From: a virus
Taxonomy: Duplodnaviria > Heunggongvirae > Uroviricota > Caudoviricetes
Virus record (IMG/VR): IMGVR_UViG_2802429224_000009
Length of the DNA: 28,217 bases
Reading direction: 5' to 3' (one strand)
Shown here: one piece after another, positions 1 through 13,170 of the stretch
How positions within the stretch are numbered: position 1 is the first letter of the stretch
How the letters are laid out: each line of letters starts with the position of its first letter
Notes under the pieces: generated by a model
Told to the model about the DNA's origin: nothing
The model's database searches: none
The model's input: the letters and a program-made list of their open reading frames with translations, nothing else
Translations under genes and position numbers: made by a program

Positions 1-1005
1 TTAATCCCCCGTGGACACTGCGTGGACACTCACGCCACCTTTCAGCGGATTAAGGGCCACCGCATCCTGCAGGTAATCCGGTGCAAAATGTGCATATGCC
101 ATTGTTTGCTGAATGGTTGCGTGGCCAAGAATCTTCTGAAGCGCAATAATGTTTCCTCCGTTCATCACAAAATGGCTGGCGAACGTATGCCGCAGCACAT
201 GTGCAGCCTGGCCTTTTGGTAAATCGGGCTTAACTCTTTTCAGCGCCAAGCAGAATTCCCGGTACTTCACCTCAAACAAGCCGCCTGTTTCTCTGGTTTT
301 GATCGCCTCACAAACTGCCTGCGAAATTGGCACTGTTCTCTTTCGGCCATTTTTGGTTTCAAGAAACGTCACTCGGTTATGAACTATCTGTTCACCACGG
401 AGCTTACAGGCTTCACTCCAGCGCGCTCCTGTGCTTAAACACAAAAGAGCAACACGCCAGTAATCGCCCTCCAATGTATCGAGCAATAACGCAACTTCCT
501 TCTGTGACAGGAACGCCATTTCTCGTGGAGATACATAAAGAATAGAAATTCCCCTTACCGGATGTTCTGCATCCCAAAGACCTATTTTTTTCAGCACGGT
601 AAACATTCCGGATAACCGATTCATGTACCTGTTAGCAGATGACGGTTTCAATCCATCAGCTATCTTTTGAGAACGCCACGCGATAATTTTCAGCTTATCA
701 AGATCCACAGCCTGCATATCAGCGCCAAGCTCATTGATTATGTTGCGCAGTTGTTTTCGGTCTTCTTCCGCCTTACGCCTGTGTTGACCGTGATACATCC
801 ACCACAACTCAAGCAAATCATTTAGCGTTCGGCGATCACGGTAGCCCTGTATATATTCCCGCTTTTCAGCGTTCGCCATGATGTAGCGTTCAGTGGCCAC
901 CGCTACCGATTTTTTGTCAAATACCTTACGCACGCGCTTTCCCTTGCGTCCGTTCGGCCTGATGTCCAGCAAATAACGACCATCTTCGAGCTTCTTAATT
1001 GACAT
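1..1005 (-). CDS. int: Phage tyrosine integrase (P2 Int-like site-specific recombinase)
   Basis: Track ORF 1..1020(-); likely start is the ATG at 1005 (MSIKKLEDGRY...) preceded by GGAGGG, TAA stop at 1-3. C-terminal region carries the tyrosine-recombinase signature (ARWSE...HVLRHTFASHF...LGH...Y). Sits downstream of the repressor on the same strand, as in P2. Confidence 0.9.
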   Translation of the reverse strand: MSIKKLEDGRYLLDIRPNGRKGKRVRKVFDKKSVAVATERYIMANAEKREYIQGYRDRRTLNDLLELWWMYHGQHRRKAEEDRKQLRNIINELGADMQAVDLDKLKIIAWRSQKIADGLKPSSANRYMNRLSGMFTVLKKIGLWDAEHPVRGISILYVSPREMAFLSQKEVALLLDTLEGDYWRVALLCLSTGARWSEACKLRGEQIVHNRVTFLETKNGRKRTVPISQAVCEAIKTRETGGLFEVKYREFCLALKRVKPDLPKGQAAHVLRHTFASHFVMNGGNIIALQKILGHATIQQTMAYAHFAPDYLQDAVALNPLKGGVSVHAVSTGD

Positions 1006-1101
1006 TGCGAAGCCCTCCAATGAACCGCTCTACAATTTCTCCAGCCTCTTTCCAGCAATAATCAGACCAGACAAAGAGCAGGTCTAACCAGTTTTCTGGC
1101 C

Positions 1102-1422
1102 TTAGCGGGGTGATTTTTGGTTTGTTTCGGTTGAAACCTGATCGCCCTCCGAATCGAAGAAGCCATCAAGAGAGAGAGGCGGAGCAATCTGCCCCGTCGC
1201 AGCATTAGTTTGATTAAACATCACCCAATCCGAATACTTCCGAAAACGAGGATGATTCAAAATCAGGAGTAGCGTTTCTCCAGGTATCATTCTTCCCAAT
1301 ATTTCATAATTTTTGAGATTGTTTTGAGATACCCCTGTCACCTCTTCCATCTCTCTACGTGACAATCCCTCTGCCTCTCGAATCAGGCGAAGTTTTTCTC
1401 CAAGGCTTGATTTATGGATCAT
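1102..1422 (-). CDS. C: Immunity repressor, P2 C-like (HTH)
   Basis: Track ORF 1102..1440(-) with a GTG at 1440; the ATG at 1422 (MIHKSSLGEKLRLI...) fits the P2 C N-terminus spacing better. HTH segment LSRREMEEVTGVSQNNLKNYE; C-terminal KYSDWVMFNQ..TGQIAPPL resembles P2 C (KYTLWFMTNQIAPESGQIAPAL) from memory. Divergent from cox. Confidence 0.8.
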   Translation of the reverse strand: MIHKSSLGEKLRLIREAEGLSRREMEEVTGVSQNNLKNYEILGRMIPGETLLLILNHPRFRKYSDWVMFNQTNAATGQIAPPLSLDGFFDSEGDQVSTETNQKSPR

Positions 1423-1537
1423 ATGTGATCTAAACTCCACGATATTGGGTTACATGTAATACAAAACATTCAAATAGCCAAAATAAGCCTATATAAGCCA
1501 TTTTGGGCCATTTGGACGAATTAAGGAGATTACCACA
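1423..1537. promoter_or_regulatory. Lysogeny/lysis switch region between divergent C and cox (candidate Pe/Pc promoters and operators)
   Basis: Seen directly: perfect 10-bp palindrome TTACATGTAA (1450-1459); 10-bp-phased direct repeats ATAGCC (1474-1479), ATAAGCC (1483-1489) and ATAAGCC (1493-1499), the last two overlapping a -10-like TATATAAG; -35-like TTCAAA at 1468-1473; AAGGAG RBS at 1523-1528. Direct-repeat operators are the known P2 C binding mode. Confidence 0.55.
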
Positions 1538-1825
1538 ATGAGCGAATCAGAGCTTGAGGGGTTCATTCAGGTAGCACCATATCCACTTGAAGCGGTGCCA
1601 TATCAACTATTTGCCAAGATGATTGGTCGCAAAGAATCAACCGTCAGAACCATGATTGACGCTGCAAAGTTACCAACGATTGACTTTGTGAAACCAGGTT
1701 CAGTGAAGACGCGAGCATCAGAAAACTGGGTATATCTGCCAGCATTTAACGCAGGTATGCGCAAAGCGTTTTTTGATCAGCCGAAAGAACGCCGCGATGC
1801 ATGGTTGTTGTGGCTGGGGCTTTAA
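1538..1825 (+). CDS. cox: Cox-like excisionase / early transcriptional regulator
   Basis: 95 aa, strong RBS. Translation ...PYQLFAKMIGRKESTVRTMIDAAKLPTIDFVKPG...NWVYLPAFNAG...PKERRDAWLLWLGL closely parallels P2 Cox as recalled (...PYQEFAKLIGKSTGAVRRMIDKGKLPVID...YWVYLPAWNNG...PKEIRDGWLMWLGL). Confidence 0.85.
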   Translation: MSESELEGFIQVAPYPLEAVPYQLFAKMIGRKESTVRTMIDAAKLPTIDFVKPGSVKTRASENWVYLPAFNAGMRKAFFDQPKERRDAWLLWLGL

Positions 1826-3922: not shown

Positions 3923-4168
3923 ATGACCATTCTGGACTACATCGCCGCCAATCCGGGTTGTAGCGGTGGAGAAATCGCCGCAGCACTGAATACCTCAACC
4001 ACAGCCATTAATGCGGAGTTACGCCGACTCTGGCGCAGCGGTTCAGTCATAAGAAAAGAGCGCAAAACAGGCGGTCGCTTTTCTTACCAGATAAACCCGA
4101 TGCCGTTCGGGTGCGGCAATCCACTTACCAACATGTTTAACCAGCTACTGAAGGAAGCCAGAGCATGA
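3923..4168 (+). CDS. Winged-helix DNA-binding protein (MarR/PadR-like fold, 81 aa)
   Basis: ATG at 3923 with AGGAG RBS; MTILDYIAANPGCSGGEIAAALNTSTTAINAELRRLWRSGSVIRKERKTGGRFSYQI is a typical wHTH layout (recognition helix, then basic wing). Stop overlaps next ATG (ATGA at 4165-4168). Confidence 0.55.
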   Translation: MTILDYIAANPGCSGGEIAAALNTSTTAINAELRRLWRSGSVIRKERKTGGRFSYQINPMPFGCGNPLTNMFNQLLKEARA

Positions 4169-4461
4169 GCGCCATCAACCACCAGGAACTACGCGAACTG
4201 GCAACTGACTTGCAACGAATGGCAACGCATCAAAAATTACTGGCGTTTCGCGCAATGCTCTCGCCGTCTGCTGTGCTGGCCCTACTGGATGAACTGGAGC
4301 ACGCCGGAACCACAGCTCCCGCCATTCGCCTGACGCTCCGCCATGAGATCGAGGATTTTTGCGCAACGCTGGAGTCATTGGGCGAACCCCAGACACCGGA
4401 AGACATGCAGCGCGAGTTACTGCAGCGCATCAACAAGGTTTTTGATTTCTTTCTCAACTAA
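4165..4461 (+). CDS. Hypothetical helical protein (98 aa), translationally coupled to the wHTH gene
   Basis: ATG at 4165 overlapping the upstream stop; acidic, predicted helical; no family recognised. Confidence 0.5.
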   Translation: MSAINHQELRELATDLQRMATHQKLLAFRAMLSPSAVLALLDELEHAGTTAPAIRLTLRHEIEDFCATLESLGEPQTPEDMQRELLQRINKVFDFFLN

Positions 4462-4475
4462 GCGGGAACCACAAC

Positions 4476-4688
4476 ATGAACAAGAAGACATGGCTTCGCG
4501 CCTATGCATGGGCGCTGGTATGCGTCCTCGTTTCTCTCATTCTGTATGTGGGGCTACTCCCCAGAATGATTTCATCAGACAGCTCCTTCCTGGTATTGCT
4601 GGGCATTTTTGTCGCCTTGCTGTACCCGGCGGGCGTTGTCCGCTTTTTCAGTAACTACATCAAAGCAATTATGGAAACCAAACAATGA
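4476..4688 (+). CDS. Small inner-membrane protein (70 aa, two TM helices), partner of the SPFH lipoprotein
   Basis: Hydrophobic segments YAWALVCVLVSLILYVGLL and FLVLLGIFVALLYPAGVV; stop TGA overlaps the ATG of the SPFH gene (ATGA at 4685-4688). Confidence 0.5.
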   Translation: MNKKTWLRAYAWALVCVLVSLILYVGLLPRMISSDSSFLVLLGIFVALLYPAGVVRFFSNYIKAIMETKQ

Positions 4689-5509
4689 AAAAACTATTAC
4701 CACTCATCCCTCTCCTGATGACCACACTTCTGGTTGGCTGTGACCGCGTGGAGCCGGGCAATGTAGGCATCAAAGTCAACAAGCTGGGCGACGACAAAGG
4801 CGTCGGCGAAGTAGTTGGCGTTGGCCGCTACTGGACAGGCTGGAATACAGAGGTTTACATCTTCCCGACCTTCAAACAAATGAAGACTTACGATGAGCCG
4901 TTCAGCTTCCAGATGAGTGACGGCACAACCATCGGCTATCACATCGGCGTGGCTTACAAGGTTGATCCATCCAAAGTTACCACAGTGTTTCAGACCTACC
5001 GCAAAGGCGTGGATGACATTACTGACACTGACCTGCGCCAGAAGATCGCCGATGCACTCAACCGACTGGCCAGCAAAATGACCACCGATAAGTTTATCGA
5101 CGGTGGCAAGTCTGAACTGCTGGATTCAGCACTTAAAGACATTCAGTCAGAAATGACACCTATCGGCATTCAGGTAATGAGCCTCTCTTATGTCGGTAAA
5201 CCGGAATATCCGCCAACCGTTATCGACAGCATTAACGCCAAAGTCACGGCAAACCAGAAAACCCTGCAACGCGAGCAGGAAGTCAAGCAACGCGAAGCAG
5301 AAGCCAACATGCTGCGCGCAGAAGCTGCCGGACAGGCCGATGCCATTCGCACAAAAGCCCAGGCTGAAGCCGACGCCATTCGTTTACGCGGTGAAGCTCT
5401 GCGCCAGAATCCCGGCGTTATGGAGCTGGAAGCGATTAACAAATGGAACGGCACGCTACCGCAATACATGACCAGTAATACCGCTGTTCCGTTTGTTCCG
5501 GTGAAGTAA
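4685..5509 (+). CDS. SPFH/band-7 (prohibitin/stomatin-like) domain lipoprotein
   Basis: 274 aa. N-terminal lipoprotein signal peptide with lipobox LLVGC (MKKLLPLIPLLMTTLLVGC); central SPFH-like core; C-terminal Ala/Glu/Arg-rich coiled coil (REAEANMLRAEAAGQADAIRTKAQAEADAIRLRGEA) typical of the family. Confidence 0.8.
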   Translation: MKKLLPLIPLLMTTLLVGCDRVEPGNVGIKVNKLGDDKGVGEVVGVGRYWTGWNTEVYIFPTFKQMKTYDEPFSFQMSDGTTIGYHIGVAYKVDPSKVTTVFQTYRKGVDDITDTDLRQKIADALNRLASKMTTDKFIDGGKSELLDSALKDIQSEMTPIGIQVMSLSYVGKPEYPPTVIDSINAKVTANQKTLQREQEVKQREAEANMLRAEAAGQADAIRTKAQAEADAIRLRGEALRQNPGVMELEAINKWNGTLPQYMTSNTAVPFVPVK

Positions 5510-6364: not shown

Positions 6365-6754
6365 ATGATTGACCGTCACGACTTCGTAAAATGGGTGCGC
6401 ACACAGGACACCCGTCTGGCCCCAAAACTTCAGGCAATGTTTGATTTTTATCTCCGTGCCCGCGCCAGCCGGGCACGCACCACAAAACCGGAGAACGCAG
6501 ACACCCTTTATTTCACCGTGGACGACTGTTACCGCGTAGCCTTCACGCCACAAGGTCTGGCCCTGTACACCCTGACACCACACGGCGACTCCCTGCTGGC
6601 GTATTACAACTCCCCGGCCTCCGTATTTGCGGCAATGCTGGCGCATCGTACCGCTGGCGGGTGTGCCTCGCTGAGTGAATACACCACTGAATTTAACCGC
6701 CTTTCCGTCATCTTCTCGCAGGAGTGGCAGCGCGTGACGGGATACCAGCCATGA
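6365..6754 (+). CDS. Hypothetical protein (129 aa) translationally coupled to gene A
   Basis: Stop TGA at 6752-6754 overlaps the ATG of the replication gene at 6751. Confidence 0.5.
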   Translation: MIDRHDFVKWVRTQDTRLAPKLQAMFDFYLRARASRARTTKPENADTLYFTVDDCYRVAFTPQGLALYTLTPHGDSLLAYYNSPASVFAAMLAHRTAGGCASLSEYTTEFNRLSVIFSQEWQRVTGYQP

Positions 6755-9591
6755 GTGAGTTTGCATGGAGCTGGAATGAACCGCAGCCAGCTATTGATCC
6801 GGACGACTTCGCGAACTTCAGCCGGTTGCCAAAAACCGGACTGCAACGCGCCATTCGTTACTACTATGAGGCGGACAAAAAGGCTCAGGAAGAACAGGAT
6901 GCGAAGGAAGAAGCCTTTTTCGCACAATCCGCCATGGGTAAAAAACTCATGGCATCCCTTGAGGAAGCCGGGCAACGCGAAAAACTGATAAAAAACATCA
7001 TCAGTAAGCGCCAGGAAATAAAGCAAGACCCGGTGGCCTGCGCCTTTGCCGAACTGAAGGCACTTCCCGTTTATCTGCGAGACCCCCTGAGCCGCCGCCT
7101 CTCTTTTTTACGTAAGAAGCAGGAATCTGACCGCCAGAAAGGAAAAAACGCCAGGCTGGCAGAACGCTATGCACAAGGAACCCTGCTCAAAATATTCAAA
7201 CGTCTGAAACGCACTGACGGACGCTGGCTGACACCGTGTTATTGCTCCCTTGCCGGACGCGAACGCCTGGACGATTTGCTTTACCTGCCGCAGCTCAACA
7301 AACACCAGATACAGACGCTGGCCACCATGACGGCGGCGATGTTCAGCAGCACTTTTGAAACACTCTGCGATAACTTTGGCGCGACTGATGGCGAGCTGAC
7401 CATGAAAATTGCGCTGAAGGCGTATCAGATGCTGGCCCGCATGGCGTTACATCTGCACACCATGCCGCCGCATTACGAAGCACTGAGAACGGACAAAGAC
7501 CGGAAGAACGCACCGAATACGGAGCTGCTGCCGGGTGCCATCCTTCGCCTGACCTGTGCGGAATGGTGGAAACACAAACTGTGGCTTTTACGTTGCGAGT
7601 GGCGGGAAGAACAACTCCGTGCCGCCTGTCTGGTTTCCAGAAAAACATCACCCTATCTGAGCCAGGACGCGTTAAGCGAGTTTCGCGCACAGCGCGAGAA
7701 AACACGCGATTTTCTGAAAAGTTTCATGCTGGAAAATGAAGACGGGTTCACGATTGATCTCGAGACAGTGTATTACGCGGGAGTAAGTAACCCGGTTCAC
7801 CGTAAGGCAGAAATGATGGCCACCATGAAGGGGCTGGAACTTCTGGCCGAAGCCCGTGGTGACAAAGCGGTGTTTCTGACTGTCACCTGCCCGTCAAAAT
7901 ACCACGCAACAACGGAGAACGGTCATCCGAACCCCAAATGGAACGGGGCCACCATGCGCGACTCCAGCGATTACCTGGTTAACACGTTTTTTGCGGCGGT
8001 CCGCAAAAAACTGAACCGCGACGGCCTGCGCTGGTATGGCATCCGCACGGTGGAGCCTCACCATGACGGCACCGTGCACTGGCATATGATGGTCTTTGCT
8101 CATCCGGAAGAAATCGACAGCATCGTGGCCATCACCCGCGATATTGCCATTCAGGAAGATCGTCACGAACTGGGCGATGATATTACTCCGCGCTTTAAGG
8201 CGGAGTATGTCGACGGCTCAAAAGGCACACCAACCAGCTATATCGCGACCTACATCGGAAAAAACCTGGACAGCCGCGCCGTAGATGGCATCGACCCGAA
8301 AACGGGCAAGCCACGCGTTGACCACGAAACCGGAAAATCAATGGCCGAGAGCGTGGAGCGCGCCATTGGCTGGGCGCGTCTTCACCGGGTCCGCCAGTTC
8401 CAGTTCTTTGGCATCCCCTCCCGTCAGGTATGGCGTGAACTCCGCCGCCTTGCCAGCCAGATGGCACGCAACCCGGAAGGCCCGCAACGGCTGAAGGATG
8501 ATGCAATGGATGCGGTACTCGCTGCCGCTGATGCCGGGTGTTTTGCCTCCTACATTGAAAAACAGGGCGGCGTACTTGTTCCACGTAAAGACTACCTGAT
8601 TCGCACCGCCTACGACCTCGCAGATGAGCTGAACGATTACGGCGAACAGAGCGTACAGATTTACGGGATCTGGTCACCACTCATCGGGGAATCCTCCCGT
8701 GTGTGCACGCATCCGGATAACTGGAAGCTGGTAAGACGCAAACCGGAAGCGGAAGACAGCGCCCGCGAAAATGGTTTTGACCTTCAGGGCGGCCCTGCCG
8801 CCCCTTGGACTCGTGGCAATAACTGTCCCCGTGTACAGGAAACGAACAACAACGGGACAGAACAGCCGGAAGAACGGCCAGCACTGTGGCCGCAGCTCCC
8901 TGACGGCGTTGAAGTGAATGAATGGATGCGCTCACTGAAACGGCACGAACGCCGGGCGCTGATGCGTTCGCTGCGTGACAAACAGGCCAAAAACAGCAGT
9001 GCTGAAATGCAGAACTGGACACAGAGCCGCAAACAGCCACAGCCTTTGCCTGATAACCACGAGTTACTCGCTAAAGAATGGCGGGAGTCTGCTGAATCTC
9101 TCGGCCTGCATATCGGTGAACAGCAGATGCAGCACCTGTTACGGGGCGGCAGTCTGTACGTTGACGGCAGCATCATTGCACCGCAGGGATTTGAAATTGT
9201 ACGCAAACCGGATACCCGCCCGGACAGCCGAATCACGCAGCTCTGGCAACGCCTGAGCCGTAACCACGGCGTAAGCAGCACGGAGATCCGCCATAACCCG
9301 GTCGCCAGCTATCTGGAACAACTAGGGGCATCAGACCCTGAAGCCGCCGCACACCTGGCATCCACACTTCAGCAGGACCAGAACACCATGAAAACCCCCG
9401 TTACCGTGCTTTCTGACATGCTGCGCGCCATCCGTGACGCAGAGCATGCACAAAGAATCAGTGAAACCACTGAACGCGCCCGCCGCAAAGCAGACCTGCT
9501 GCGGGGTGGCCTGACCAGCGGAAACAAAAAACAGACAGAAACGGGATTCACAAATCCCGTAAATGAGCAAAAAACGCGCCGCGATATATGA
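6751..9591 (+). CDS. A: Rolling-circle replication initiation endonuclease, P2 gpA family
   Basis: Track ORF 6724..9591; probable start is the ATG at 6751 (MSEFAWSWNEPQ...). Carries the HUH-type motif (HDGTVHWHMMVF) and paired catalytic tyrosines (TSYIATYIGKN) characteristic of gpA-family initiators. At 946 aa it is longer than P2 gpA as I recall it. Confidence 0.9.
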   Translation: MSEFAWSWNEPQPAIDPDDFANFSRLPKTGLQRAIRYYYEADKKAQEEQDAKEEAFFAQSAMGKKLMASLEEAGQREKLIKNIISKRQEIKQDPVACAFAELKALPVYLRDPLSRRLSFLRKKQESDRQKGKNARLAERYAQGTLLKIFKRLKRTDGRWLTPCYCSLAGRERLDDLLYLPQLNKHQIQTLATMTAAMFSSTFETLCDNFGATDGELTMKIALKAYQMLARMALHLHTMPPHYEALRTDKDRKNAPNTELLPGAILRLTCAEWWKHKLWLLRCEWREEQLRAACLVSRKTSPYLSQDALSEFRAQREKTRDFLKSFMLENEDGFTIDLETVYYAGVSNPVHRKAEMMATMKGLELLAEARGDKAVFLTVTCPSKYHATTENGHPNPKWNGATMRDSSDYLVNTFFAAVRKKLNRDGLRWYGIRTVEPHHDGTVHWHMMVFAHPEEIDSIVAITRDIAIQEDRHELGDDITPRFKAEYVDGSKGTPTSYIATYIGKNLDSRAVDGIDPKTGKPRVDHETGKSMAESVERAIGWARLHRVRQFQFFGIPSRQVWRELRRLASQMARNPEGPQRLKDDAMDAVLAAADAGCFASYIEKQGGVLVPRKDYLIRTAYDLADELNDYGEQSVQIYGIWSPLIGESSRVCTHPDNWKLVRRKPEAEDSARENGFDLQGGPAAPWTRGNNCPRVQETNNNGTEQPEERPALWPQLPDGVEVNEWMRSLKRHERRALMRSLRDKQAKNSSAEMQNWTQSRKQPQPLPDNHELLAKEWRESAESLGLHIGEQQMQHLLRGGSLYVDGSIIAPQGFEIVRKPDTRPDSRITQLWQRLSRNHGVSSTEIRHNPVASYLEQLGASDPEAAAHLASTLQQDQNTMKTPVTVLSDMLRAIRDAEHAQRISETTERARRKADLLRGGLTSGNKKQTETGFTNPVNEQKTRRDI

Positions 9592-9636
9592 AGCGCGCAC
9601 AAAACAGGCGAAAACGGGATTTAAAAATCCTGTAAC
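9528..9636. promoter_or_regulatory. Two about 35-bp imperfect direct repeats, each with a hyphenated palindrome ACGGGATT-N4-AATCC(C/T)GT; candidate parC-like centromere/operator or replication nick site
   Basis: Copy 1 at 9528-9562 (inside the 3' end of A), copy 2 at 9601-9635 (intergenic, about 30 bp before the parM RBS). Palindromes 9541-9560 and 9614-9633. Confidence 0.4.
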
Positions 9637-9667
9637 CGATTAATTAATCAACATAAGGAAAAGCGAC

Positions 9668-10627
9668 ATGAAAATTTGTATCGACGACGGCTCCACCAAC
9701 ATCAAGCTGGCATGGACTGAGAACGGCGAACGCCGCAACGCCATCAGCCCGAACAGCTTCAAGTCGGAATGGTCTGCGCCGTTCGGTGGCACGCAGCCCG
9801 CGAACTACATGCTTGATGGCGTGCGCTATGGTTTTGATCCGGTCAGCGATCGCTTTGTCCAGACGACCGACACGCAATACCAGTACAGCGATGTGAATGT
9901 CATTGCCATTCATCATGCGCTGGTCAAATCAGGCATCACGCCACAGGAGGTGGATGTGGTTGTCACCCTGCCACTGAGCGAGTATTTCGACACAAACGCA
10001 CAGCCGGACATGACCAACATCAACCGCAAAAAAGCGAACGTTATGCGCCCGGTGGAGTACCAGAACGGCGAGGCATTCACTATCCGTAACGTGCGGGTTA
10101 TGCCTGAATCCATTCCGGCTGGCTTTAAAGCACTGGCTGACATGAGTCCGTTTGAATCCCTGCTGATTGTGGATTTGGGCGGAACCACGCTGGATGTGGC
10201 AAAGGTTCAGGGGCAACTGGCAGGTATCAGCCAGGTGTTTTGCGATCCACACGTAGGCGTTTCCCTGATGGCCGATGCCGTACTGTCGGTGATGGCCACC
10301 AACGGTATGCGCACCAGTCACCACATCGCCAATACCATTATCGAACATCGCCACGATGAAGCCTGGCTGCGCCAGCACATCCACAATGACGCGCATTACG
10401 CCAGCCTGATGGCGGTTATTCGTGAAAAGGAAGAAACACTGAAACAACGCGTGATCCGCGCGCTGGCGGGTTTTTCGGGTTACGGGCGGGTGATGGTTGT
10501 CGGTGGAGGGGCGGAGATTGTGGCACCCGCTATCCGCGAAGCCTGCGGAGTTAATGCGACTTTCATCGCGGACGGGGTGCCACAGTTTGCTCTGGTTAAT
10601 GGGCTGTACGCAATGGACAAGGAGTAA
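9668..10627 (+). CDS. parM: Actin-like segregation ATPase, ParM/StbA family (type II partition)
   Basis: 319 aa, AAGGAA RBS. N-terminus MKICIDDGSTNIKLAW closely matches R1 ParM as recalled (MLVFIDDGSTNIKLQW); phosphate-2 motif IVDLGGTTLDV; C-terminal VMVVGGGAEI...LVNGLYA also ParM-like. Confidence 0.9.
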   Translation: MKICIDDGSTNIKLAWTENGERRNAISPNSFKSEWSAPFGGTQPANYMLDGVRYGFDPVSDRFVQTTDTQYQYSDVNVIAIHHALVKSGITPQEVDVVVTLPLSEYFDTNAQPDMTNINRKKANVMRPVEYQNGEAFTIRNVRVMPESIPAGFKALADMSPFESLLIVDLGGTTLDVAKVQGQLAGISQVFCDPHVGVSLMADAVLSVMATNGMRTSHHIANTIIEHRHDEAWLRQHIHNDAHYASLMAVIREKEETLKQRVIRALAGFSGYGRVMVVGGGAEIVAPAIREACGVNATFIADGVPQFALVNGLYAMDKE

Positions 10628-10631
10628 ATCA

Positions 10632-10946
10632 ATGACGACACCAACCAGACGGATAAGTTTCTATCTGAAGCCCGCCGTCGTCAAGAGCGAACGGGAGGCG
10701 TGCAGTTACCTCGACAGCCTGCCAGCCTCCGAACGCAGCCGCGCACAACGCGCGGCTTTTCTGGCCGGACTGGCTCTTATAAAACGCACCCCCGCGTTGG
10801 CGTATTCGCTGGCAGAATGGTCAGAAGACGAAATACGGATGCCATCGCTGCCAGTACAGCCTGAAAAACCGGCACAACCAGCAACAAAGAACGACAGCGC
10901 CACACAACTGATGAAGGACAATATCCGCGCACTCTTTCCCGAATAA
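10632..10946 (+). CDS. parR: ParR/StbB-like centromere-binding adaptor (ribbon-helix-helix)
   Basis: ATG at 10632, 4 nt after the parM stop. RRISFYLKPAVVKSEREACSYLDSLPASERSRAQRAAFLAGLAL parallels R1 ParR (RTIAFKLNPDVNQTDKIVCDTLDSIPQGERSRLNRAALTAGLAL) from memory. The track ORF 10497..10946 is an artefactual upstream extension overlapping parM. Confidence 0.8.
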   Translation: MTTPTRRISFYLKPAVVKSEREACSYLDSLPASERSRAQRAAFLAGLALIKRTPALAYSLAEWSEDEIRMPSLPVQPEKPAQPATKNDSATQLMKDNIRALFPE

Positions 10947-11033
10947 CCCCATCGGGGCAATATCGCCCGCTTGCAGGAGAGTCCGGACGAAGCCAGAATA
11001 ACGGCAAACAGTAACTCAGAAGAGGATAACATC

Positions 11034-11537
11034 GTGAGTCACTTTAACGATTTATGTCAGATCAACAAGGATGCAGAAGAGAAGCATACCGAAGCAGCGA
11101 AAATTCTGCGGGAGAGCGCAGCAGAGTTGATTGATTTTTATGAAGAATGGCTGGGGCTTCCATCCCTGTACTGGGAAGATAATGACGGCAACTCGCATCG
11201 CTATGTAGACACAGGCCAGCCATGCAAAACAGCGGAAGACTTCCGCCCGTTCCCACTCCACAGAATGCCATCTTCTCGGGACAATGTTTTTCGTATGGCT
11301 GTGCGAACGTGGGTTGGTTCATCTGACAACAGTTACCCGGTAAGCGTGGTTATTGCGCTTGAACTGCATTCGGTAGATACAGAAAGGGTATCCCTGAAAG
11401 TTCAGGTAGAAGACGATGGCCCTGTTCGCGTATTGCTTAATAAACCCAGCGCAGAAGCCTGGGGAGAGGTGGTCAAGAGCATGAAAAAACACATTGCCAG
11501 TCACCTGAAAAGCCGCGCTCCATCCGCGCTCCGTTAA
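11034..11537 (+). CDS. Hypothetical acidic protein (about 167 aa from GTG 11034; track ORF begins at TTG 10971)
   Basis: GTG at 11034 has AGAGGA about 7 nt upstream; ORF ends at 11537 directly before a strong hairpin. No family recognised. Confidence 0.5.
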   Translation: MSHFNDLCQINKDAEEKHTEAAKILRESAAELIDFYEEWLGLPSLYWEDNDGNSHRYVDTGQPCKTAEDFRPFPLHRMPSSRDNVFRMAVRTWVGSSDNSYPVSVVIALELHSVDTERVSLKVQVEDDGPVRVLLNKPSAEAWGEVVKSMKKHIASHLKSRAPSALR

Positions 11538-11553
11538 ACAGGGCTGGTGAGTC

Positions 11554-11576
11554 GGGGCATAAATCCTTTATGCCCC
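11554..11576. terminator. Perfect 10-bp stem / 3-nt loop hairpin (GGGGCATAAA-TCC-TTTATGCCCC), terminator-like, no U-tract
   Basis: Seen directly at 11554-11576, 17 nt after the stop of the preceding ORF, at the boundary between the early (+) and late (-) gene blocks. Confidence 0.4.
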
Positions 11577-11812
11577 GGCGAAGCAGCAGACAAGCGAAGC
11601 GCGTCAGTCACCGTAGTAGGGAAAATAACTTTATTGTTGAGCTTAAATTTATCAAGCGTTATCTTTCGCCTGTAAACTGCATTGTAAGGTTTTGGGGATT
11701 CAGAGGCGGCTCCCCCAAAAAAGTTGATACCGCCTAGTTGGTCACTTCGTCGTCAGACTGGGACTCCAGCCACGCCAGCTGAGAGGTTGGCACAAACCTC
11801 CAGCTATCCCCG

Positions 11813-12070
11813 TTACCCCGCCTGCAACAGTTCCAGTGCCATCTGTTTTTCTTCCGGGCGCATCCGTTCAATCAACAGCTTTAACACGCCATTCTCCAGC
11901 CCGCTGGGCACCAGTGTGTGCGAGTAGGTCAGGTTCATCACCCAGGTGTGCCCACACTCGAGACGGGTGCAACGGTAATAAACATCTGCAAAGCGATCAT
12001 CTTTCCAGAAGGTCTTCTCAATCACTGCGCGTTCACCACAGCAAAAACATCGCGCTTTTTGTCTGCGCAT
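11813..12070 (-). CDS. ogr: Ogr/Delta-family zinc-finger late-gene transcription activator
   Basis: Track ORF 11813..12139(-); internal ATG at 12070 (MRRQKARCFCCGER...) with GGAGGTGG RBS. Cys spacing C-X2-C-X22-C-X4-C (C8, C11, C34, C39 of the 85-aa product) equals the Ogr zinc-finger spacing. Confidence 0.8.
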   Translation of the reverse strand: MRRQKARCFCCGERAVIEKTFWKDDRFADVYYRCTRLECGHTWVMNLTYSHTLVPSGLENGVLKLLIERMRPEEKQMALELLQAG

Positions 12071-12135
12071 TTTCCACCTCCCAGAGCAGCGTTTTCCTGC
12101 AGCTGATTTTACCTGCTCTTTTCGCATGTCGCACA

Positions 12136-13170
12136 TCACTCCGGGGGCTCATCAAATTCAAGAATAAATTTCACCTCCCCCAGTCGCCTGATATCCGGGT
12201 CACTGTTGATTCCCTCCATAATCAGGCGGCGCATCGGAATAACCTCATCCCTGTAATATGCCTCGCGGGATTTCAGTGGGTCACCAAGCCCGGCCGTATT
12301 TGCGGGAATGATGCCGGCAAGTCCGGGTGGGAAACGGTGCGCAACGAGCTGATCCTGGGCACTGATGGTTTTTATATTCAGGAACTCATCTTTTGTACCT
12401 GAATCCCCGATAGGGATCACCTTAACGCCTTCTTTGTCTCCGCCCGGTATATTGATAAACATGGATTTAAAGTTGCCCGCCCCTTTTGACGCCTCTATCT
12501 TTTTACGGAATTCCGCCTCGAGCTCGGGATCCATGTCCGGGTCAGTGGAATACAGGATATAACCAAGATGTGCGCCGTTCTTGTAATACTTGCGGCGAAA
12601 GCGGGTGGCATCCACATTCAGCATGGCGGATTCCATCCCGTGAATATAATCCGGGACACCGTAAACCTGCTGTTGCGGGTCATAAATGGCCACGAACACC
12701 ACTTCGCCTGGCGGGTAAACGAGATCTTCCAGTGCCGCCTGCACAATCACCGTGCCACCCTCGTTGTTACGCCGCAGGTACAGAGAAGGTAACGTATGCA
12801 GGCGCACCACCCGACCGAAGCCATTGCGCACTTTAAGCAACCCCATATCCCCGAATATCAGCAGATTGGTTACTGCTGCCGCCATGGCGGCGTGTGTCAT
12901 ACCACCACCACCCCGAAAACCCTGCATGATCATATTGACGCGCGCACGCAATACCGCGCCGTGATACGGTGCGATATTGGACAACATGGCGAGATCCATG
13001 CGCTCAATGGGCGGCGTGTACCAGCCGTTATAGCCATCCCAGAGCGAGCCGTAATAACAGCCCCATGCAGCGACCGGTTCCGGGTCACCAAATTCAATAA
13101 ACGTCATTTTGCTGGCTGTTTTTTTTGCCACGCCATCGTGTAACACGGGGTATTTTTTCTTTTTACTCAT
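12136..13170 (-). CDS. Q: Portal vertex protein (P2 gpQ-like)
   Basis: 344 aa, same length class as P2 gpQ; immediately downstream of and overlapping the large terminase gene on the same strand. Confidence 0.85.
   Translation of the reverse strand: MSKKKKYPVLHDGVAKKTASKMTFIEFGDPEPVAAWGCYYGSLWDGYNGWYTPPIERMDLAMLSNIAPYHGAVLRARVNMIMQGFRGGGGMTHAAMAAAVTNLLIFGDMGLLKVRNGFGRVVRLHTLPSLYLRRNNEGGTVIVQAALEDLVYPPGEVVFVAIYDPQQQVYGVPDYIHGMESAMLNVDATRFRRKYYKNGAHLGYILYSTDPDMDPELEAEFRKKIEASKGAGNFKSMFINIPGGDKEGVKVIPIGDSGTKDEFLNIKTISAQDQLVAHRFPPGLAGIIPANTAGLGDPLKSREAYYRDEVIPMRRLIMEGINSDPDIRRLGEVKFILEFDEPPE

Follow-up and report, generated by a model that had tools for sequence, protein, structure and literature searches.

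We analyzed a 28,217-nt stretch of viral DNA (IMG/VR record IMGVR_UViG_2802429224_000009, Caudoviricetes; hereafter, the window) that carries a P2-like prophage and, directly behind its replication gene A, the two genes of a plasmid-type actin partition system, parM and parR. The original prediction, made from the sequence alone, had described a complete type II ParM/ParR cassette with candidate parC-like sites, and the features of that cassette were located at the positions it proposed or a few bases away. Over 2.2 kb, the region shows a 94-96% match to phage P88 (Xuanwuvirus, Peduoviridae), Citrobacter phage phiSM and about eight other isolated phages, and we refer to the phages and prophages of this kind as P88-like. 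The locus is laid out as follows.

6724-9591, + strand: gene A, replication initiator (rolling-circle endonuclease), 955 amino acids (Pfam Phage_GPA, E 1.3e-129)
9525-9562, + strand: direct repeat copy 1, 38 nt, candidate ParR site (distal half of a parC-like centromere/operator), from a repeat finder
9598-9635, + strand: direct repeat copy 2, 38 nt, candidate ParR site overlapping the possible -35 element, from a repeat finder
9620-9659, + strand: possible promoter and ribosome-binding site, with -35 TTTAAA at 9620-9625, a 17-nt spacer, -10 ATTAAT at 9643-9648 and the Shine-Dalgarno sequence AAGGA at 9655-9659
9668-10627, + strand: parM, actin-fold ATPase of 319 amino acids, a predicted filament-forming motor (Pfam StbA_N and ParM C-terminal domain)
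10632-10946, + strand: parR, ribbon-helix-helix adaptor of 104 amino acids, a candidate centromere binder (Pfam Plasmid_stab_B; PHROG 2515)

A gap of 76 nt separates the end of gene A from parM, and the start of parR lies 5 nt from the parM stop, which places a small ribbon-helix-helix adaptor directly downstream of the ATPase gene, as type II systems require. Besides matching StbA_N (E 2.9e-82) and the ParM C-terminal domain (E 1.3e-68), the window ParM aligns over its full length with R1 ParM (PDB 1mwk; E 8.9e-93), at a global identity of 47%. Its four ATPase motifs are complete and aligned with those of R1: the phosphate-1 motif DDGSTN, MPESIP with the catalytic Glu, DLGGTT with the phosphate-2 Asp and the adenosine motif GGGAE, at residues 6, 145, 169 and 279, respectively. 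The R1 residues behind this assignment we take to be E148 and D170. The original prediction had named inactivated ATPase motifs as grounds for abandoning it; on inspection, all four proved intact.

ParR matches Plasmid_stab_B with an E-value of 1.2e-24. The ParR of pB171 (PDB 2jd3) is matched weakly by the window ParR alone (E 0.006) and at E 1.6e-15 by a profile built from seven ParR sequences. The protein consists of an N-terminal beta-strand, MTTPTRRISFYLKP, a variable linker and the C-terminal tail MKDNIRALFPE, which aligns with the R100/R1 tail KKNAMKLIN; in this short motif, compared by alignment only, the Asn is invariant and the hydrophobic positions are kept in all seven sequences. 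We therefore describe it as a putative, R1-like ParM-binding tail. Judged on their sequences, parM and parR constitute an intact, functional-looking type II (ParMRC-like) module.

The two direct repeats upstream of parM are 82% identical to each other, and each contains a palindrome. The first, ACGGGATTCACAAATCCCGT, spans 20 bp at 9541-9560, with the core CGGG-N10-CCCG at 9542-9559, and sits inside the last codons of gene A. The second, ACGGGATTTAAAAATCCTGT, occupies 9614-9633; it follows site 1 at a distance of 73 nt and precedes the parM ATG by 53 nt. The repeats had been thought to flank the cassette: they exist, palindromes included, but both lie upstream of parM, the first of them within the 3' end of gene A. 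Allowing up to three mismatches, the two palindromes are the sole matches to ACGGGATT-N4-AATCCYGT in the 28-kb window (4 strand-matches versus 0.25 expected); with no further copy found at that threshold, a dispersed centromere made of additional palindromes was rejected. The looser pattern YGGG-N10-CCYR occurs about once per 4-6 kb in P88-like, Plesiomonas and Hafnia loci, yet it is paired upstream of parM, with the following positions relative to the parM ATG.

Window and P88: distal site at -126, proximal site at -53, start-to-start distance 73 nt
Plesiomonas: distal site at -132, proximal site at -60, start-to-start distance 72 nt
Hafnia: distal site at -129, proximal site at -56, start-to-start distance 73 nt

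Between these genera, the outer GGG/CC bases, the spacing and the position of the 18-bp sites are kept, and the inner bases vary. Among 50 distinct P88-like upstream sequences, the palindrome arms hardly vary, and no stretch varies more than the 4-nt spacer of site 2; that spacer apart, the region is too uniformly conserved in P88-like loci for arms to be contrasted with flanks. Folded as RNA, the window palindromes are stable (-11 and -9 kcal/mol) and the homologous Hafnia and Plesiomonas sites are not (z -0.6 to -2.3). Because stable hairpins are confined to the E. coli-type sequence, we consider the candidate sites to be DNA sites. An RNA structure was rejected on the same ground, the hairpin not being conserved in Hafnia or Plesiomonas, and a search of Rfam with the palindromes gave no credible match. 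In an E. coli contig, at 4808-4978, an unknown mobile element whose ParM is 51% identical carries three direct repeats (about 23-30 nt, ATYTTTCTATAT-type) upstream of parMR; their 72-73-nt spacing is the same phasing as in the P88-like two-site layout.

The -35 hexamer TTTAAA lies within palindromic site 2. Between that site and the ATG, the window, Hafnia and Plesiomonas share TTAATCAA, followed by TAAGGA in the window and Hafnia or by AAAGGG in Plesiomonas, and this conserved stretch suggests, at the level of sequence, a weak parM promoter. Transcription of parM together with gene A, started at the early promoter, is an equal possibility. With no + strand terminator between A and parM, read-through out of the early operon is also likely; the sole terminator-like call, at site 1, falls on the minus strand, which bears no gene there, and a transcription terminator in this interval was accordingly rejected.

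The same parM is present in the isolated phages P88, phiSM, 569R5, PhiR44_2 and Chuche. In a search with parM only, 1303 of 5426 complete E. coli genomes gave some match and 1279 gave one covering at least 80% of the gene, with 1441 chromosomal places versus 2 on plasmids. A tblastn search of 50,697 phage records returned ParM only from P88-like phages and from the P1-like phage-plasmid D6, the latter at 48% identity. The taxonomic breadth described below derives from the protein database and contig look-ups, a scan of genome contigs with a single ParM having yielded three near-identical loci only. Both genes are also already annotated. P88 carries them as 'plasmid segregation protein ParM' and 'partition protein', PGAP names both, and PHROGs families 691 and 2515 ('partition protein') cover both proteins. 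P88 (gp17-gp18), phiSM (parM/parP) and the E. coli P2-like prophages in which PGAP names ParM hold the same module as the window, with ParM 99.7-100% identical, the same upstream sites and the same position after the replication endonuclease; P88 differs from the window in its ParR allele and in its downstream cargo gene.

The original prediction had regarded a plasmid-type segregation system next to an intact integration switch as unusual, a view that these counts and annotations overturn. The phage lineage is a very common one, its cassette has been annotated and discussed before, and the idea of an episome is already in print. In an analysis of 18,150 gpA-gpQ loci, Rousset et al. (2022; PMC9122126) offered plasmid-like maintenance by the cassette as speculation, Pfeifer et al. 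(2021; PMC7969092) flagged P88 in a screen for phage-plasmids and suggested both episomal and integrative states, and Magaziner et al. are cited beside these two studies on the same interpretation.

Two further sets of records turned up in these searches. A 226-kb contig from an assembly labelled as the Gram-positive Vagococcus sp. WN89Y (NZ_JBQPOM010000071.1) contains an E. coli-type P88-like prophage with a ParM 98% identical, and its assembly is probably contaminated or mislabelled. In PLSDB, the two partition genes and the end of gene A, 96% identical to the window, also sit within plasmid records of 228-542 kb from E. coli and Salmonella; at least one such plasmid is typed as conjugative, and part of the set may be pieces of chromosome assigned wrongly.

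In the protein database, the identity of ParM homologues is 91-100% among P88-like elements and then drops straight to 63% or less. The next relatives are P2-like prophages of four other genera, in which gene order is largely shared.

Plesiomonas prophage: ParM 63%, order A-parM-parR-cargo-Ogr-portal
Hafnia prophage: ParM 62%, order A-parM-parR-cargo-Ogr-portal, with one extra open reading frame (ORF) between A and parM
Serratia prophage: ParM 58%, order A-parM-parR-cargo-portal, no Ogr gene called
Enterobacter prophage: ParM 54%, order A, two genes, parM-parR-cargo-portal, no Ogr gene called

Homologues at about 50% identity reside in a Dickeya integrative and conjugative element (ICE), a plasmid-like region of Mangrovibacter and another mobile element. 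In a neighbor-joining tree of 11 ParM sequences, the ParMs of P2-like phages form a clade apart from those of R1, phage D6, the ICE and the plasmid-like element. Within the P88-like group, the 319-amino-acid parM ORF is intact in every one of 87 loci, and across 69 distinct alleles the ratio of nonsynonymous to synonymous substitution rates (dN/dS) averages 0.05, at a mean synonymous divergence (dS) of 0.084; purifying selection on parM is very strong. Over 79 of these loci, ParM averages 99.3% amino-acid identity to the window, versus 87.8% for the neighboring gpA.

The portal gene Q lies at 12136-13170 on the minus strand, so that the cassette falls between gpA and gpQ. The locus had been equated with the variable region after gene A, and this is correct insofar as the gpA-gpQ interval is where P2 carries tin and old; the cassette itself, however, is not variable cargo. 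The presence/absence variation expected of hotspot cargo is not seen, given a cassette found in 87 of 87 P88-like loci and syntenic in four other genera. Similarity among relatives is lost within the 3' part of parR or directly behind it and picks up again near 11538. Because similarity breaks there, the variable hotspot is best placed as beginning at the 3' part of parR, with parMR as its conserved left flank. The cassette may well be vertically inherited backbone of the P88-like (Xuanwuvirus) branch of P2-like phages and not a recent plasmid acquisition, a proposition that we grade below together with the role of the module.

The right-hand border of the module is where the loci diverge. Across loci whose ParM is 98-100% identical to that of the window, ParR identity ranges from 54 to 100%, and at least three allele groups can be distinguished: the P88 type (group A, 62 loci), the window type (group B, 14 loci) and a third type (8 loci). 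The window ParR is 57% identical to that of P88. The first 16 codons, encoding the predicted DNA-reading beta-strand, are essentially identical among groups, with the divergence lying beyond them; past codon 16, dS between the window allele and the P88 allele is saturated, at 1.2-1.5. No covariation of ParR allele group with site sequence was found, the sites and the beta-strand being the same in all groups. Every downstream cargo cluster is tied to one ParR allele type, and allele A adjoins at least 12 cargo clusters. In the simplest reading, old parR alleles have hitch-hiked where recombination bounds the hotspot; the ParR adaptors might differ in function. In the window, the variable slot of the hotspot is filled by the following ORF.

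10971-11537, + strand: variable cargo ORF of the gpA-gpQ hotspot, 188 amino acids, outside the partition module (PHROG 5091, unknown function)

This ORF, which may start at the GTG at 11034, has no Pfam or PADLOC match and is a candidate cargo or defense gene that differs between otherwise similar prophages.

Comparison with characterized systems helps to delimit what the module might do. The parMRC (stbAB) locus of R1/R100 shares with it the order parM-parR, cis sites directly upstream of parM, a full-length ParM alignment with identical ATPase motifs, and a ParR of the same Pfam family with an aligned C-terminal K-x-N-hydrophobic tail, although R1/R100 ParR is only about 33% identical to that of the window. 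The two diverge in their centromeres: R100 parC is a run of A/C-rich direct iterons of about 11 bp on both sides of the promoter, whereas the phage has two palindromes of 18-20 bp that start 73 bp apart and lacks an array of iterons. The label 'R1-type' attached by the original prediction is thus apt for the ParM and ParR proteins but not for the repeat architecture. The elements differ as well, R1/R100 being theta-replicating low-copy plasmids and the present one a rolling-circle, integrating P2-like phage. Phage D6 likewise carries a StbA/StbB pair on a phage genome, but as a 91-kb, P1-like plasmid prophage with 16-nt direct repeats of TCTCAAAT type upstream and a ParM outside the P2-like clade.

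Closer parallels in lifestyle come from two elements that normally reside in a chromosome. The type II-like srpMRC partition system of the SXT/R391 ICEs makes loss of the excised element measurably less frequent, and the R391 srpC centromere functions with only four 13-bp repeats in two pairs (Carraro et al. 2015; PMC4489591). As would be the case here, it acts on the transient circular, rolling-circle-replicating form of its element; it differs in that SrpM and SrpR are distant from ParM and ParR, with SrpR lacking homology to known ParR, and in belonging to a conjugative element and not to a phage. The AlpAC/alpS system of the Corynebacterium prophage CGP3 is induced early and needed for efficient CGP3 replication (Donovan et al. 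2015; PMC4446434). It also pairs, in an integrated prophage, an actin-like protein with an adaptor whose DNA-binding site lies upstream of the operon encoding it; the likeness is one of description, the actin-like protein being of a different subfamily, the host Gram-positive and the system not described as a plasmid-type stabilizer.

In the mechanism that we propose, ParR dimers would bind the four half-sites of the two palindromes, whose starts, 73 bp or about seven helical turns apart, would set the sites on the same face of the DNA with A-tracts between them. The resulting ParR-DNA complex would cap ParM filaments via the ParR C-terminal tail and would probably repress the weak parM promoter that overlaps site 2, and growing filaments would push paired DNA molecules apart. 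The substrate would be the circular phage genome outside the chromosome and not a stably kept plasmid prophage; the module would be at work between infection and integration, or in replication once the phage has excised. P2-type replication yields monomeric circles. Copies spread through the cell or to both daughters could raise the yield of lysogens or phage and lessen loss of the excised element. That the cassette acts on episomal phage DNA is a reasonable idea, and our analysis points to the transient extrachromosomal phase as its most likely setting, with a stable plasmid prophage less likely. We favor this transient role because it fits the dominant integrated state and matches the srpMRC and AlpAC precedents. 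The best explanation, then, is a functional type II segregation module, inherited as phage backbone, that would act on the transient circular phage genome; our single estimate applies to these parts jointly and leaves the whole about evenly poised between being right and being wrong.

Several points weigh against this explanation. The sites number two palindromes, set against ten iterons in R1 parC, and might amount to a mere operator. Serratia and Enterobacter relatives have another layout, with two 20-nt arms, inverted, 26-28 nt apart. A consensus promoter scan called no + strand promoter upstream of parM, the candidate agreeing with the consensus at 8 of 12 positions. Complete assemblies show the state of most cells, so that a transient or minority episome is not quantifiable from them. 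The searchable literature contained no functional study of this cassette, only annotations and two speculative sentences.

A bolder version would make parMRC a phage cytoskeleton working on rolling-circle monomeric circles, with a short-lived, actively partitioned plasmid phase and carrier-state inheritance ahead of integration or following excision, the two palindromes as a minimal centromere phased at 73 bp, and the ParR alleles as functionally distinct adaptors; we put it forward tentatively, as decidedly less probable than the explanation above. The view that P88-like phages are true phage-plasmids, able to persist as stable plasmid prophages of low copy number instead of integrating and partitioned by ParMRC, was the main idea of the original prediction and is the one published as speculation; in our judgment it is unlikely. 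A plasmid prophage has been reported for the P2-like Burkholderia phage KS14. KS-14 stands among the phage-plasmids listed by Pfeifer et al. (2021; PMC7969092), in the same screen that picked up P88 and led to the suggestion of episomal and integrative states, and PLSDB holds a 34,461-bp circular record, labelled plasmid, that is a whole P88-like phage (NZ_CP148288.1). Over 25 kb, however, that record is 100% identical to the chromosomally integrated prophage of another strain from the same project (NZ_CP148378.1). The record represents either excised, replicating phage DNA or a true episome, and a lone circular contig could simply be excised or replicating phage DNA in the sequenced culture. 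The remaining PLSDB matches come from prophages lodged in large replicons or from a linear, unplaced contig; a Shigella 'plasmid' of 26.8 kb was rejected as evidence of an episome, being a linear, IS1-riddled unplaced contig. A phage-plasmid is defined by its being a separate replicon, and the balance of chromosomal over plasmid places in the complete E. coli genomes is that of an integrated element. The int-C-cox switch is intact, as had been predicted, with the integrase at 4-1020 (-), a C-type helix-turn-helix repressor at 1102-1440 (-) and Cox at 1538-1825 (+) all present, and among the ORFs scanned in the early region the only replication initiator identified is the rolling-circle gpA, whose early operon is repressed; the same scan turned up no plasmid Rep of the theta type.

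Two other functions can be envisaged, each of which we judge quite improbable and somewhat more so than the stable phage-plasmid. The cassette might be hotspot cargo with a defense or exclusion role against related phages, satellites or plasmids, through partition incompatibility or through ParR acting on their sites. The gpA-gpQ interval is a documented anti-phage hotspot, and the three or more deeply diverged ParR groups beside a near-invariant ParM, tied as they are to particular downstream cargo clusters, recall a diversification of specificity or incompatibility. Yet PADLOC returned no match for ParM or ParR, and a cassette constant within its lineage and syntenic across genera is unlike true hotspot cargo. 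The sharing of beta-strand and sites across allele groups indicates that binding specificity has not diversified, and the occurrence of allele A beside so many cargo clusters fits hitch-hiking at a recombination boundary. Alternatively, the module could serve the integrated prophage or host chromosome by separating sister loci, or ParR could mainly regulate the end of the early operon. Such a role would suit an element that is nearly always chromosomal, strong selection on ParM among integrated prophages, and an operator-like arrangement of only two sites, one in the end of gene A and one over the possible -35. A purely regulatory role, however, leaves unexplained both the dN/dS of 0.05 on a 319-amino-acid ATPase with all its catalytic motifs and the conserved putative ParM-binding tail of ParR, and no type II system is known to us that serves a locus of the chromosome. 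Least credible of all, and very improbable, is a decaying remnant of a captured plasmid cassette without present function: ParM clusters of 188-261 amino acids do exist in the protein database, at least one of them labelled partial, but the remnant is contradicted by the 87 intact loci and by the strength of selection, and it sits badly with synteny and a separate ParM clade across five genera and with the retention of at least 80% of parM in 1279 of the 1303 E. coli genomes that have a match.

Elsewhere in the window, an Ogr/Delta-type zinc-finger gene (11813-12139, - strand; 108 amino acids as listed) lies directly upstream of the portal gene Q, with a 4-nt overlap, and a gene of this type stands beside the portal in the Plesiomonas and Hafnia prophages as well; in P2, ogr lies near int. 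The early region encodes, at 4685-5509 (+), a protein of the SPFH/Band 7 family (Pfam E 1e-30); the P88 gene at the corresponding position (4084-4914), likened to it by position only, is annotated as a lipoprotein/serine protease. Just after the cargo ORF, a short conserved stretch at 11545-11623 (+) gives a sub-threshold match to the Rfam gyrA RNA motif (24.4 bits versus a gathering score of 45, E 0.005), which is probably due to chance. The form of the P2 cos sequence that was searched for had no match in the window, and we make no statement on cos.

To the existing annotations and published suggestions, the present analysis adds the cross-genus gene order, the P2-like ParM clade, the dN/dS of 0.05, the two-site layout and the ParR alleles. 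Plasmid-type actin segregation genes are carried by about one quarter of complete E. coli genomes and are strongly selected in phages that are almost always integrated. If a role for them were demonstrated, it would add a cytoskeletal step to the life cycle of the P2 family, possibly by positioning replicating phage circles, by raising lysogenization, by keeping the excised element from being lost or by permitting a plasmid state for a time. Any such role, if true, would make the boundary between integrative phages and phage-plasmids less sharp, much as srpMRC has done in the case of ICEs.

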